From assembly GCA_951406725.2 (NCBI GenBank), contig OX597826.1, forward strand, positions 25,482,001 through 25,546,000: a DNA stretch of 64,000 nucleotides, given 5' to 3'. The notes beneath the pieces were generated by a model, which saw nothing but the letters and a program-made list of their open reading frames with translations, was not told the origin of the DNA and did not search any database. The first letter of the stretch is position 1. Each line of letters opens with the position of its first letter. Below, piece after piece: positions 5,781 through 64,000 of the stretch. This DNA is from Octopus vulgaris (lineage: Eukaryota). Made by a program: the position numbers and the translations under genes.

Positions 5781-6928
5781 ATAATCTATCTATCTATCTA
5801 TCTATCTATCTATCTATCTATCTATCTATCTATCTATCTATCTATCTATCTATCTATCTTTACATATAATCATGTAACGACACACGTACTTTTCACCGCC
5901 CTATCTGCTTCTTTCGCCTTTTCCTCTTCTCTTCTCTGCACTTTTTTCTCTTTCCGACCAAGAGCCAAGCTCGAAACGTCATTTCAAATCTTATTTTCGC
6001 ATCTAAAACTTTCACTGAGCGTCCATCTAATATTTTCATTGTGTACGTCTAATTGACTTTTGTTGTTGTTTCCTCTTTGACAACCGGCGTTGGTTTGTTT
6101 ACAAGCGCGTAACTTAGCGGTTCCGTAGAAAGATTTCAATATAATATGAAACAGACTAAAAATAAGTACCAGTGGCGATTTTGTCGACTTCATCTCACTT
6201 AGCGGTTCGCCAGCATGGTCACAGTACAATGATTGAAACAAGTCAACACGCACGCACGCGCACACACACATCCATACGATGTTCTTTCAGTTTTCACCTA
6301 CCAAATCCACAAGGCTTTACTCGTCCCGGTGCTATAGCAGAAGACATTTGCCCAAGACACTACATAGTAAAATTGAACCCGGAATCATGTGATTGTAAAG
6401 TAAGCTTCTTACAACCCAAGTCGCACCTGAACCTCTGTAATATATATATCATTGGTTAGTTGTCTATTACTCAGAATAAAAACATTCTAAAGATAAATTG
6501 AGCGGTTACATTTTAATATTGTCCACTAATGTATTCTTTATTATGGCGTATAACCTGCCAAAGTGTTATCCATGGTTTACCGACTATTGGCCCTTGGCAA
6601 TGATGACAATTATTGCCAAGAGCAATAGAAAGCACGAAACCTTCGGTAGCAGTCTGACAGGTTATCTGCCGTAATCAGGAACATACTGCTGGACAATATA
6701 GCATATCTATCTATCTATCTATCTATCTATCTATCTATCTATCTATCTATTTATCTATCTATCTATCTATCTATCTATCTATCTGTCTGTCTGTCTGTCT
6801 ATCTATCTGTGTGTGTGAGCGCGCGCGTGTGTGTATGAGCGTGTGTGTATGAGCGTGTGTGTATGTGTGAGTGTGTAATTATGCATCATAGACAACGAGA
6901 CAAAGTGTACATGCAATATATGTAAGCT

Positions 6929-7144
6929 CAGGCAGTGAGCTGGTAGAATCGTTAGCATGCCGGCTAAAATGCTTAGCGGCATTTCGTCCGTCTTTACGTT
7001 CTGAGTTCAAATTCCGTCGAGGTGGACGTTGCCTTTCATAATTTCGGAGTCAATAAAATAAGTACCAATTGAGAACTGCAGTCGATGTAGTCGATTAAGC
7101 ATCCTCCCCTGAAATTGCTGGCCTTGTGCTAAAATTTGAAACCA
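6929..7144 (+). mobile_element. tRNA-derived SINE, family B monomer with non-Tx1 tail (tail i)
   Basis: Head ggcagtgagctggtagaatcgttagc, B box gagttcaaattcc, Meta-domain-like gcctttcat...ataagtacc, tail ggccttgtgctaaaatttgaaacca. Confidence 0.88.
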
Positions 7145-7214
7145 ACACATATAAGCTTATGTCGTTTGTGGGGTTCGATGGTGCGGGGTATGGAGGCAGA
7201 AAGTCAGTTACGTC

Positions 7215-7920
7215 AGCAGGTGCAACGTGTTATGTATGCTTGTGTATAAAATTGTGTATGGATCAGTGTATATATGCGTTTGCTTATATAAGTGCATGTG
7301 CGTGAATGTATGTGTGTGTGCGCGCGCGCGTGTGTGTGTGCTTGTATATGTGTGTGTGTGCTTGTATATGTGTGTGTGTGCGTATGTGCATGTGAATATA
7401 TATACTTGCTCGTATGGGTGCGGGCGTATATATATGTCTACTTGCAAAAGTGTGTGTATATGTGCATGTGTACGTATGTGTTCGTTTGTGTGTGTATGTG
7501 TGTGCGCGCGTGCATGTATCTATGTGTGTGTATCTATATGTGTGTGTGCGTATGTGTATGTGTGTGAATATATATGATTTGCGTATGCGTGTGGGCGTAT
7601 ATATGTCTACTTGCTTAAGTGTGTGTATATGTGTATGTGTGTGTGTGTGTGCGCGTGCATGTGTGCATGTATATATGTGTATGCGTGTGTGTGCCTGTAT
7701 GCGTGTGAAGATATATATAATTATGCGTATGCGTGTGGGCGTATGTCTACTTGCATAAGTGCGTATATATGTGCATGTATACGTGTGTGCACATGTGTGT
7801 ATGCATGTATGTGTGTGTGTGTATGTATGTATGTGTGTGTGTGTATGAGCATAAATATATGTACAGTATCTATTTGTATTAATGTGCTTATGTTTACGTG
7901 CGCACGTGCGCGCGTGTGAG
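7215..7920. repeat. Compound (GT)/(AT) microsatellite with higher-order periodicity
   Basis: gggcgtatatatgtctacttgc recurs near 7422, 7593 and 7737. Confidence 0.8.
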
Positions 7921-8070
7921 CGTGCTAAACTCTCCTATCGACTAATAGATTGGTTGTTATAGCTGACTCTGACGTCAAATGTCATGTGACTATCACCCAT
8001 CGATACCTCTAAACACCCTACTTCCACAAACCTACTGTTTCTCCACTGCCGGATGCAGCGGCATCCTTAT

Positions 8071-8236
8071 CTATTTCTTTACTACCCACAAGGGGCTAAA
8101 CACAGAGAGGACAAACAAGGACAGACAAACGGATTAAGTGCGTAACTGGTACTTAATTTATCGACCCCGAAAGGATGAAAGGCAAAGTCGACCTCAGCGG
8201 AATTTGAACTCGGAACGTAACGACAGACGAAATACG
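8071..8236 (-). mobile_element. SINE family B (Tx1-type tail), 3' part of the copy interrupted by the LINE
   Basis: Body and tail match array units at 21001-21570; the missing head is at 13502-13564. Confidence 0.9.
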
Positions 8237-8439
8237 AATTTCTTTATTGCCCACCGGGGGCCAAACATAGATATGGACAGTACAACTGATGGGATCAGTG
8301 AATCGATATGATTTTACCGAATGGAATACACAATACAAAAACAATGCAAATGAAGCGATGATCAGGTTACGCTCCGACCCCACAAGCCCCGATCTACCGC
8401 TGATACCTTTTTTTTTTCCCGTCTATTCACACGGTTCCT

Positions 8440-60691: not shown

Positions 60692-61180
60692 ACGCAGGAG
60701 TGGCTGTGTGGTAAGTAGCTTGCTTACCAATCACATGGTTTTGGGTTCAGTCCCACTGCGTGACACCTTGGGCAAATGTCTTCTACTACAGCCTCGAGCC
60801 GACCAAAGCCTTGTGAGTGGATTTGGTAGACGGAAACTGAAAGATGCCCGTCGTATATATGTATATGTATATGTATATGTATATGTATATATATATATAT
60901 ATATATATATATATATATATATATATGTGTGTGTGTGTGTGTGTGTGTGTGTGTGTGTGTGTGTGTGTGTGTGTGTGTGTGTGTTTGTGTGTCTGTGTTT
61001 GTTCCCCTAACATCGCTTGACAACTGATGCTGGTGTGTTTACGTCCCCGTAACCTAGCAGTTCGGCAAAAGAGACCGATAGAATAAGTACTAGACTTACA
61101 AAGAATAAGTCCTGGGGGTCGATTTGTTCGACGAAAGGCGGTGCCCCAGCATGGCCGCAGTCAAATGACTGAAACAAGTA
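60692..61180 (+). mobile_element. SINE family A, full length
   Basis: Head, internal microsatellite and tail. Confidence 0.93.
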
Positions 61181-62279
61181 TAGTACAGCTGTTTCTGCTA
61201 TCAGATGCTGCGGACTCATAGTTGAGTGCCGGAATAACACCTTATAGCTTCACCGGAGCTTTGATTATGAAGTGCAATTTATTTGGGAAAGAATTACATT
61301 TGCGCATATACAAGGAACGGCATCAGCGATGAGAAAGTCAATACAGATGTATATAAAAAGAGATTGTATATCCAGAAGGTAATAACATGTATCAGTGGAA
61401 GTAAGTGTATATACTCGTACGCACGCACTCTGAGACTGTTGCTGGGTGGGGACTGACTTGTGGTCAGTGTGGACTGACTTGTAGGTCCCCCTTGCAGGCC
61501 TTAGGAGCTGTGCGAGACGTCATCAACAATGGGGAGACCAAACTTGAGATGTTTCTAAGGGCGAAATAGGACTAGTAAATGGTCTTACTCGGTCACGAGT
61601 TGACTTCGACCACGTATCACAATAAAACTCAAGAACACGAGAAATCCAAACATAACGCTTTACAAAATGAAAATAACTGTAGAGCGAATAATAGTATTTT
61701 ACAAGTTCAATGTAGCGAACGAAACATGCTTTCGTAAATTTATAGAAAACTTTTCTAAAACAGAATATTCTGTTTTGGAGGAGCCATTCATGATTTAGCG
61801 GAAGCGAAGTTTGTGTGTGTGTGTGTGTGTCCGTCCGTTTGAGTGTCTGTATATGTTTATATATACACATATATATTGTATATACACATATACACATACA
61901 TGCATATATATACACGTATATATACGAATTTATGTACACATACTCATATATATATACTCATACATATATATATATATATATATATATATATATATATATA
62001 TATATATATATATATATAATATATAAAATATATATATATAATATATATATATATGTATATATATAATATTATGTATTATTTATATGTTAATTATTATATA
62101 TCCATGCATATATATATATACATATATATATATATGTATATATATATGTATATATATATATATATATATATATATATATATATATATATATATATATATA
62201 TATATATATATATATATATATATATATATATATATATATATATATATATATATATATATATATATATATATATATATAT

Positions 62280-62855
62280 ATGTATGTATGTATAAAGTGT
62301 TAGGTGTGTATGTATGTATGTATGTATAGAGTGTTAGGTGTGCTGTACAGAAATTGAATATTGAGAAAAAATGCCGTCAGAATTTTGGATTTTGGATTTT
62401 CCAAAATTATGACGACTTTATACATACATATATATATATATATATATATATATATATATATAGAAATATATTATATATATATATATATATATATGTATAA
62501 AGTCGTCATAATTTTGGAAAATCCCAAATCCCAAATTCTGACGGCATTTTTTCTCAATATTCAATTTCTGTACATCACACCTAACACTCTATACATACAT
62601 ACATACATACACACCTAACACTCTATACATACATACATACATACATACATACACACCTAACACTCTATACATACATACATACATACATACATACATACAT
62701 ACATACACACCTAACACTCTATACATACATACATACATACATACATACACACCTAACACTCTATACATACATACATACATACATACATACATACATACAT
62801 ACATACACACCTAACACTCTATACATACATACATACATACATACATACATACATA
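62280..62855. repeat. Foldback with ~85-bp unique arms flanked by a cacacctaacactct(atac)n minisatellite
   Basis: 62345-62430 inverted at ~62490-62573; minisatellite has 2 units on the left (inverted) and 7 on the right. Confidence 0.88.
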
Positions 62856-63072
62856 AATACATATATGTTAATGTTTATTTTTATATAATAAAAACTAGTT
62901 TACATTAATTTGAGATGTTACCCTATACTGATGTCGAGTAGAAGTTTATTCTTAAACAAGAATATTTTTGACTTCGAAGTTTCGGCCAGTTAAGCTATCA
63001 TCGCATGGGCTTAACTGGCTGAAACTTCGAGGTTACGGGCAACAATATTCTTGTTCAAGAATAATAAACATC

Positions 63073-63575
63073 GATGTCTGGGATTCCTGATAGATGGCGA
63101 CACTGAACAGACAGAAAGTTTACACACCTATTTACCATAAGTGAAATATTTTTCCACGGTAACTGCAATGAATTTTGTCTTTTAGCAGTTGAAATATGTC
63201 ACAAATGTGTTTTAACTAATCTAAACGCTGCTTGGCGCTAACATTTCGTTATTTTCCATAATCGGGCGATCTACCAGCGCAAATCAGTCAACATTGTTGA
63301 CTATATTTTACATAAAGCTATGGTTTTATAAGTTTCTACAGAGTTGCCTCTCTTGAGTACATCCCACTGACAAGAGTAAAAAAACTCGACACACAGATGT
63401 CTGGGATTCCTCATAGATGGCGACACTGAACAAACAGGGTACTTTTACGCCTTTTTACCATAAGTGTAATATTTTCCCCACGGTAACTGTCTTTTAGTAG
63501 TTGAAATGTTAGAAACATATTTAAACTAAACTAAATTTTCCTTATGCCTAAACACTGCTTGGTGCTAACATTTCG
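63073..63575 (+). repeat. Diverged direct duplication, period about 325 bp
   Basis: gatgtctgggattcct(g/c)atagatggcgacactgaaca at 63073 and 63397, with further collinear matches. Confidence 0.85.
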
Positions 63576-64000
63576 ATATATATATCAAAGACACGAAATT
63601 AGATTTATTAGATTCTTTATTCAAAATTTACTACAATTGTTTCGACTCATTTTGCACTTGTAGCTCTGAGATATCAGACGAACCCACATCACAGCAAAAC
63701 ACGCACAAAATGCACGCGCACGTGTGTATTAAAGTTGCTGGCATTTTTTCAGGTATTCAAATTGGGGGCCACAGTAGGAGAGGTATATGACAACCAAGCT
63801 AGTATTAATCCTGTCCCTTATTCTTTGAAGACACTAGGGCCATCTCACAGCAACAATGAAAGCCATTGGAATTGAGTCTAAATCGTTTGAAACACAAGCC
63901 CGAGACTGTAGCATGTGGTGGTTCCATCACCACCGTAAACAAAAGCTTCGAAGCCATCAGAAGAGAATGTAAAATTGATCAAAATAAACGAAAAATGTCT

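Follow-up and report, generated by a model that had tools for sequence, protein, structure and literature searches.

Hammerhead-bearing repeats in a 64-kb window of the Octopus vulgaris genome are probably 3'-end insertions of endonuclease-bearing Penelope-like elements

The 64,000-nucleotide stretch of Octopus vulgaris DNA analysed here (the window; contig OX597826.1, positions 25,482,001 to 25,546,000, in the 2.8-Gb genome assembly GCA_951406725.2 of 227 contigs) contains short repeats with minimal hammerhead ribozyme motifs. We conclude, with a probability of roughly 0.85, that endonuclease-bearing Penelope-like elements (PLEs) of at least three lineages have inserted their 3' end, the pseudo-long terminal repeat (pseudo-LTR) region, independently into the window about a dozen times. 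A preliminary description, made from the letters of the window, had listed 17 hammerhead sites in a swarm of non-coding, Penelope-like or retrozyme-like parasites. All the motif boxes were found where it had placed them (the C3 of the copy given at 34378 lies at 34379). Twelve of the 17 sites belong to eight dispersed families, designated A to H, and three more are decayed or half relatives; the site at 20695 is unconfirmed and that at 61190 unsupported.

The preliminary description had proposed a scan against shuffled controls, and its outcome depended on stringency. A strict hammerhead descriptor was too narrow, with 0 and 1 sites in the window. A relaxed descriptor, in which A9 may be followed by one more base and helix III may be as short as 2 nt, was set after inspection of the data, both features being known for PLE hammerheads (PMC4209133). 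At up to one mismatch it retrieved 5 window sites versus a mean of 0.44 in local dinucleotide shuffles (0/25 shuffles reached 5). With no mismatch, the site at 44423 alone passed, and 2/40 shuffles reached one site; at two mismatches the window count was at background level. No hammerhead was present among the best 150 of 378 Rfam matches of the whole window, which were swamped by microRNA models on microsatellites, and three local Rfam scans gave no hammerhead match. The case for hammerheads therefore rests on the families. These were found by genome searches with the window copies as queries; the candidate numbers are a first look and not copy numbers, and identities are those of scored copies. 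Genome-wide, family A (sites 44423 and 25817) gave 1785 candidates (85-93% identical), family B (36505) 2066 (84-90%), family C (35847 and 34378) 998 (40/40 scored copies 100% identical), family D (33281 and 32647) 144 (90-97%), family E (59370) 2083, family F (49870 and 39797) 573 (76-89%), family G (39954) 946 (92-96%) and family H (63640) 38.

In all eight consensuses, helices I, II and III pair at the expected places with sequences that differ by family, and these differences between families are the real covariation signal. Helix I comprises 3-6 bp in 8/8 consensuses (shuffle p 0.002-0.03 each) and the base of helix II likewise 3-6 bp; helix III is self-complementary throughout, from a 2-nt minimum in A and B to palindromes of 6-8 nt in F, G and H, family C having a 4-bp stem with an 8-nt loop. 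The proposal that these are type I PLE hammerheads with self-complementary helix III, in several families, is borne out. The "short hairpin" described for helix II fits A, B, C and E (3-4 bp) and not G and H, in which it is long, and the "at least five unrelated families" become eight dispersed ones, among which A is related to B (the two are homologous around the ribozyme) and E to the copy at 39375. The hammerhead lies 40-125 nt from the 3' end in each family. All catalytic letters (CUGANGA, GAAA, NUH) are kept in the consensuses of A, C, G and H, and one fixed change is present in B, D, E and F.

The remaining listed sites were compared with the same families. The site at 5954 is a decayed relative of A, and that at 39375 of E. 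Two of the three reported "half motifs", at 45961 and 63640, are 3' halves of real hammerheads: the first belongs to a ninth family, I, whose whole hammerhead stands in locus L213, and the second breaks off within helix II, which means that the CTGA box seen there does not represent the true core. The site at 20695 has helix I and III letters in common with E and no homologue in the fetched loci (labelled L, ~0.95 Mb in total, from which the structural counts below were drawn rather than from the whole genome). The site at 61190 likewise has no homologue in these loci, adjoins the end of a short interspersed element (SINE) and is probably a chance motif. If all the motifs were chance products of AT-rich repeats, the background count at two mismatches, the lack of Rfam matches and the case of 61190 would be expected; however, one core pattern of the A/B type has 24,079 exact matches in the genome versus 0 for the reversed control, and 8/8 consensuses pair in helix I over 3-6 bp. 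Chance is refuted for A-H, and the probability that we leave to it is negligible.

Beside these results we noted three local features. Families C, E and F have in common a hairpin 35-60 nt after the cleavage site (e.g., window 34300-34325 and 59290-59315), with a nearly identical 5-bp stem in otherwise different families; it is a candidate signal for recognition by reverse transcriptase (RT). In families C, F and G (window 35830-35842, 39800-39812 and 39955-39975) a pyrimidine-rich stretch just 5' of helix I ends in AG at the start of that helix, resembling the end of the Penelope intron. Families A and B have a conserved 9-nt motif ~20 nt past the cleavage site; judged by eye, it might compete for the 3' strand of helix II and so prevent the active fold.

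The anatomy of the insertions is that of PLEs. (TA)3 stands directly behind 89/128 located 3' ends of A, B and D-H and behind 25/25 of family C, versus 11% of random positions in the same loci; family H favours other microsatellites (1/9). In the window, 15/19 sites lie within 300 nt of (TA)4+, versus a background of 53% (p ~0.02): the statement that nearly all motifs are next to (AT)n was too strong for the window, and the TA link holds genome-wide. Where two copies of one family stand no more than 1 kb apart (29 pairs), the arrangement is tail-out inverted in 25 cases, tail-in in 3 and direct in 1. The upstream extent common to copies ranges from 0 to >1000 nt in B, C and D and from 4 to 406 nt in G, i.e., the 5' ends vary. 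Insertions of PLEs have been described as 5'-truncated, with an inverted, 5'-truncated partner and an optional 3' tail (PMC8557442); all these characters were found here, and the structure agrees with the accounts given in PMC4209133 and PMC8557442. The junction between inverted partners often falls at or close to helix I (window 59372-59412; L015, L032, L087, L165-L184, L187, L202), which suggests that complementarity within the ribozyme provides the microhomology used in inversion.

These data also bear on the earlier designation of the repeats as retrozyme-like. In the non-LTR retrozyme model, non-coding repeats in tandem would be cleaved into monomers, which form circles and return to the genome by rolling-circle reverse transcription. 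The repeats here resemble such retrozymes (PMC7229834; 10.64898/2026.07.22.740005, for the features described there) in the type I hammerhead, the short units (135-215 nt), the low GC content, the lack of an ORF (open reading frame) in most copies and a likely use of PLE machinery. However, the only direct pair among the 29 is split by (TA)n, no hammerhead unit was present among the best 150 of 196 tandem-array rows of the window, and units do not begin at the cleavage site (3-4/88 copies within 3 nt). Thus, in contrast to retrozymes, the families form no head-to-tail arrays in the fetched loci and have no units bounded by cleavage sites, and in B, C, D and G the position of the 5' end differs by hundreds of bases between copies. 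Moreover three families, B, C and D, are coding (see below), which contradicts the retrozyme model for these three. Their position beside (TA)n, their 5' truncation and their tail-out pairing show that the copies are not tandem retrozymes, and we consider this model very improbable overall.

Endonuclease-bearing PLEs are recognised by a single ORF combining RT with a C-terminal GIY-YIG domain, here on the strand of the hammerhead; such an ORF was found intact for C and in pieces for B and D. The repeats had been called non-coding; in the cases of B, C and D they are 3' ends of PLEs that do code for protein, and a non-autonomous nature is conceivable for A, E, F and a short C subfamily, which have sharp 5' limits and no ORF link in the samples. 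Family C loci run upstream via a microsatellite-like 3' untranslated region (3' UTR) into a GIY-YIG frame. Open frames of 574-722 amino acids with RT motifs and GIY-YIG are present in 7/8 loci, which were chosen for long frames, and in 5/8 of them the hammerhead lies 3.1-3.3 kb after the stop codon on the same strand. A protein search with the family C endonuclease gave 150/150 scored matches at 95-100% identity. An upstream pseudo-LTR (a partial tandem) precedes the full ORF in L132 and L134, an arrangement found in family C alone; in L132 the cleavage site lies 139 nt before the ATG.

The intact family C protein of 713 amino acids has >1100 homologues at ~40% identity, some with Pfam GIY-YIG or RVT_1. 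It carries DKT, a CxCX5C linker and a C-terminus with CxxC and CxH, lacks CCHH, and has RWR at residues 38-40 in place of RWK. Since the marks given for the Hydra clade (Craig et al. 2021, PMC8557442) are DKT, the CxCX5C linker, absence of CCHH, CxxC and CxH, and a (TA)n insertion, family C is, as judged by its motifs, a young Hydra-type PLE; assignment to Neptune was rejected because the motifs fit Hydra. The hammerhead and the (TA)n insertion are common to family C and the clade, whereas RWR (RWK in the clade), the U-U at the base of helix II, its very young age and its high number set family C apart. Hydra elements are also described as "generally <3 kb", a typical and not a defining figure, whereas family C measures ~5.5 kb (a 2.1-kb ORF and 3.1-3.3 kb to the hammerhead) because of its 3.2-kb microsatellite-like 3' UTR. 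This 3' UTR (L132-L139) consists largely of imperfect microsatellites, window 34620-35620 being such a stretch, and the element itself thus spreads microsatellite-like DNA.

Both family C arms of the window match the 3' UTR of the element at 92-94%. The first (34249..35268, minus strand; core 34379, predicted cleavage after 34341) ends in (AT)188 and is 92% identical to the L136 3' UTR over 951 nt. Its inverted partner (35264..35908, plus strand; core 35847, predicted cleavage after 35885) has a 6-bp helix I, U-U at 10.1/11.1 and a helix III of 4 bp with an 8-nt loop. The family has two alternative 3' ends ~70 nt apart, 13 long and 12 short (n=25), and the window pair is one of each, the minus-strand copy having the long terminus. 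Contigs from four RNA runs (X1, X5, X9, X17) cover the element and both 3' ends with no splice or circular joint; as contigs cannot reveal ends, strand or level, they carry no weight either way.

Family D leads to a 228-residue endonuclease frame in L102 and to an RT piece in L103. Its minus-strand copy in the window (32434..33105, 3' limit approximate) comprises the last 31 codons of the GIY-YIG endonuclease (33105-33010), the 3' UTR, the hammerhead at 32647 (with A9C) and a tail into (TA)n; the preliminary description, which overlooked these codons, had stated that no GIY-YIG ORF was visible. The inverted partner (33106..33815, plus strand; hammerhead 33281) is split by a SINE with an internal (TA)n at 33356-33748, flanked by a 5-bp duplication, and the SINE insertion is therefore younger than the family D copy. 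In L149, L153 and L159, family B continues upstream for ~0.6 kb to reach RT and endonuclease frames that have decayed. A CX4CxxC linker stands ahead of the C-terminal GIY-YIG in B (L153) and D (L102, L103), and the GIY-YIG has cysteines between its two motifs; the linker agrees with the CX2-5CxxC linker that precedes GIY-YIG in the clades Neptune and Nematis. From their motifs B may be Neptune-like and D Nematis-like. A PLE-like N-terminal frame, presumably of that kind by resemblance, lies just upstream of a family A copy in L250; being a single case, it was not accepted as an ORF link.

Several results weigh against the conclusion that the repeats are 3' ends of endonuclease-bearing PLEs. 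Pfam found nothing significant in the family C protein itself, and its GIY-YIG matches to D (E 5e-4, 20.9 bits) and B (E 0.0045, 17.7 bits) lie below the curated cut-off of 22.6. In 15-60 loci per family, A, E, F, G, H and I could not be connected with any ORF, and tblastn with the C, B and D proteins gave no ORF link for E, F, G or H. In 13 copies of family G, pairing is kept in 89% of cells and both partners have changed in three pairs (helices I and III), yet this covariation is not above shuffles (63/500 score as high) and the helix III change could be CpG decay. Folding z-scores are weak for eight window copies (-2.5 to 0). Finally, the 5' limit of family A is sharp, which random truncation does not predict: in 27/30 loci, picked by the 5' 26-mer of the family (2683 exact genomic matches), copies end at one point, give or take ~12 nt, that lies ~110 nt ahead of the cleavage site (two of the loci are arms of one insertion). 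Linkage of family consensuses to autonomous PLEs, suggested earlier as a check, was achieved for B, C and D, all eight consensuses pairing, and not for A or E-I.

Sharp 5' limits were not restricted to family A. In family B, 10/19 flank copies reach the start of the model and ~8 of these stop within ~10 nt (by eye); in the C subfamily of ~135 nt, 8/9 C-type copies outside the window, derived from 5 insertions, start 34-45 nt ahead of the cleavage site. The Penelope pseudo-LTR contains an internal promoter and a 75-nt intron (PMC2377424), the intron ending at helix I (PMC4209133); given this placement, the 5' limits may mark transcript starts. They fit run-off copying of the upstream pseudo-LTR or self-propagating solo units, a third option being microhomology with the target or helix I. 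According to the second option, the short units (A ~215 nt, B ~200 nt, the C subfamily ~135 nt, E and F) would be non-autonomous, SINE-like solo pseudo-LTRs with an internal promoter, whose transcripts would begin at a fixed point, run across the hammerhead into the adjacent (TA)n and be copied whole by the protein of a partner PLE. The limits of A, B and the C subfamily and the internal promoter of Penelope (PMC2377424) speak for this, as does the proposal that retrozymes derive from pseudo-LTRs (10.64898/2026.07.22.740005). However, longer A copies exist (L006, L247, L260, L068, L078), B runs to its ORF, and the samples are small. The same limits would arise if RT primed on the upstream pseudo-LTR tail of a full transcript and ran off its 5' end, or if joints favoured microhomology with (TA)n/(TG)n or helix I. 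We regard the solo-unit model as possible but rather unlikely. Its more specific form, in which the B-type A6U hammerhead, the most abundant here, and family A spread as promoter-delimited, ~200-nt SINE-like solo pseudo-LTRs mobilised by PLE proteins, by neither random truncation nor a tandem retrozyme route, appears to us more doubtful still.

With insertion of PLE 3' ends as the preferred explanation, the known PLE cycle suggests how the copies could arise. The GIY-YIG domain would nick (TA)n, and RT, primed at the nicked (TA)n, would begin copying at the 3' end of the element's RNA and mostly stop early, leaving a 5'-truncated insertion; most insertions would thus keep the hammerhead-bearing tail alone and be dead on arrival. 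The hammerhead might trim the precursor RNA in the upstream pseudo-LTR, with a cleavage that would be slow, as a dimer for A, B and D (helix III of 1-2 bp) and possibly as a monomer for C. Only 3-4/88 non-central copies (family B left out), and none in family C, have a 5' end within 3 nt of the cleavage site. The absence of a pile-up there suggests that the templates of the copies were uncleaved.

The core variants raise the question of whether cleavage matters at all. Family-fixed changes are U10.1-U11.1 in C, G and I, U4C in E and F, A9C in D and A6U in B, and since they are fixed in families, several of the "substitutions" listed earlier are not decay; the cores at 5954 and 39797 are indeed decayed. 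In B-type cores, T occupies position 6 in 66/66 cases, from at least four subfamilies, and A6U was found on 81/100 first-listed matches of the A/B core pattern (first 10 Mb of contig C1, counted by eye). Core differences among the B subfamilies are confined to positions 7 and 17, the two free ones. U10.1-U11.1 and U4C occur in active natural hammerheads, A6C is known with low activity, and changes at A6 and U4 lower activity (PMC3088659). A natural A6U was not found in literature searches, which yielded work on A6C, on U4C and on other RNAs; Lunse et al. 2016 or the supplements of PMC4209133 and PMC8557442 may list A6U, A9C or these families.

One could therefore imagine that the folds are kept as structure, for recognition by RT or as a splice or promoter signal, with cleavage dispensable and the A6U, A9C and U4C families poor or dead ribozymes. 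The fixation of A6U, its dominance in the genome count, the reduced activity of A6 and U4 variants, the poor cleavage of PLE hammerheads in vitro (PMC4209133) and the lack of a 5'-end pile-up all go in this direction. Opposed to it are the restriction of B subfamily variation to the free positions, the occurrence of U10.1-U11.1 and U4C in active ribozymes and the retention of all catalytic letters in A, G, H and the young family C. A purely structural role seems to us possible, if on the unlikely side; it is compatible with PLE 3'-end insertion, from which it differs in the role of the ribozyme alone.

As for the "swarm", the word describes the genome rather than this window, given the 24,079 matches of the A/B core pattern. 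This pattern occurs 0.55 times per 64 kb genome-wide versus 2 times in the window (p 0.11), and exact copies of the family B type would number roughly 19,000, provided that the first 100 matches listed are typical of the rest. Profiles of A-H gave ~7 matches per 64 kb in the flanks of other families' loci versus 20 in the window, a comparison in which the families were chosen from the window, pairs are counted twice and thresholds differ (1e-4, 1e-3). These densities rest on flanks of fetched loci, biased to microsatellite-rich places, and on counts of exact pattern matches. The window shows modest enrichment at most and is no special swarm.

That truncated PLEs have dispersed hammerheads by the thousand in animal genomes was published in 2014 (Cervera and de la Pena, PMC4209133). 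Like the motifs described there, those of the octopus are type I, with a short helix I and a self-complementary helix III, and occur as dispersed single motifs, some on opposite strands 100-700 bp apart; the extra base between 9 and 10.1 (A, B, D, F) and G10.1-C11.1 (A, B, D, F, H) are also common to both. They differ in helix II, of 3-4 bp in A, B, C and E and very long in G and H, and in their family-fixed variants (A6U, U4C, A9C, U10.1-U11.1), whereas the main text of PMC4209133 names U3-A8. For an octopus genome 31 recently active PLE families have been counted, ribozymes not being mentioned in the available part of that source (PMC13282606), and a literature search joining Penelope-like, hammerhead and octopus returned PMC8557442 alone. 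What stands out here is one very young family (C) and one very abundant family (B) with an unusual core change. The in vivo role of PLE hammerheads is an open question (PMC4209133, PMC7761336), and this genome contains both a young, intact Hydra-type element, whose ribozyme has a complete helix III, and abundant lineages in which core changes are fixed, so that cleavage can be compared between families. If the units are in fact SINE-like solo pseudo-LTRs, the genome would provide a natural series (A6U, U4C, A9C, U-U, canonical, active Hydra element) in which to ask whether cleavage by PLE hammerheads is needed at all. For annotation, short repeats embedded in (TA)n, numbering tens of thousands in this genome, are probably PLE tails undetected by Rfam.

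The other hammerhead-bearing copies of the window are as follows. Family A is represented on the plus strand by a unit with an intact minimal hammerhead (44359..44555; core 44423, predicted cleavage after 44449) and by a copy at 25745..25940 (core 25817), in which the cleavage position is G, unlike the TH reported earlier. Two plus-strand 3' fragments absent from the earlier list, one beginning at the cleavage site (28865..28967) and one without core (49221..49313), belong to the same family, and 5944..6025 (plus strand, E 2e-4) is an old A-like copy with the decayed core 5954. Family B has a PLE 3' end at 36442..36627 (plus strand), whose core at 36505 combines the family-fixed A6U with a copy-specific G12C, and an old, previously unlisted copy with a decayed first core box at 15024..15174 (plus strand). 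The family E unit at 59233..59412 (minus strand; core 59370 with U4C and A10.1-U11.1) has a short inverted 3' end joined at helix I; a decayed E-like copy, cut within the core (site 39375), lies at 39377..39511 (plus strand), and the unconfirmed E-like motif, for which no homologue was found, at 20690..20740 (plus strand). Family F comprises two minus-strand copies, 49755..49884 (core 49870 with U4C, helix III palindromic) and 39647..39807 (core 39797 decayed), and a tail-out pair not listed earlier at 62868..63069 (63012-62868 minus, 63006-63069 plus). The 3' end of family G (39841..40328, minus strand, 5' limit approximate; core 39954) has U-U at 10.1/11.1, a 58-nt helix II arm and a 6-nt palindromic helix III. 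That of family H (63585..63666, minus strand; site 63640) is the half motif cut within the long helix II, and the family I tail-out pair (45868..46074) retains the GAAA half of the hammerhead alone, at 45961.

Microsatellites and SINEs are abundant in the window. A long interspersed element at 8690-13150 (minus strand), which we take to be L1/Tx1-like, has a 751-residue RT frame (RVT_1, zf-RVT), a broken endonuclease region and an ORF1-like frame upstream. Another 5'-truncated repeat family embedded in (TA)n, with many copies in the fetched loci, is present at 44566-44700 (plus), 49522-49395 (minus) and 51958-52023 (plus). It was rejected as a hammerhead despite its CTGAAGA and GAAA boxes because its helices are inconsistent and an NUH site is lacking; it is possibly the tail of another retroelement. 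TA-flanked near-perfect palindromes, some copied elsewhere, occur at 59599-59732, 38212-38295 and 62348-62570 and are either similar to miniature inverted-repeat transposable elements or inverted retroelement ends. Finally, a 184-bp SINE-derived unit without hammerhead forms head-to-tail arrays of 2-3 copies each at 15718-16115, 21017-21569, 23789-24233 and 29062-29611.

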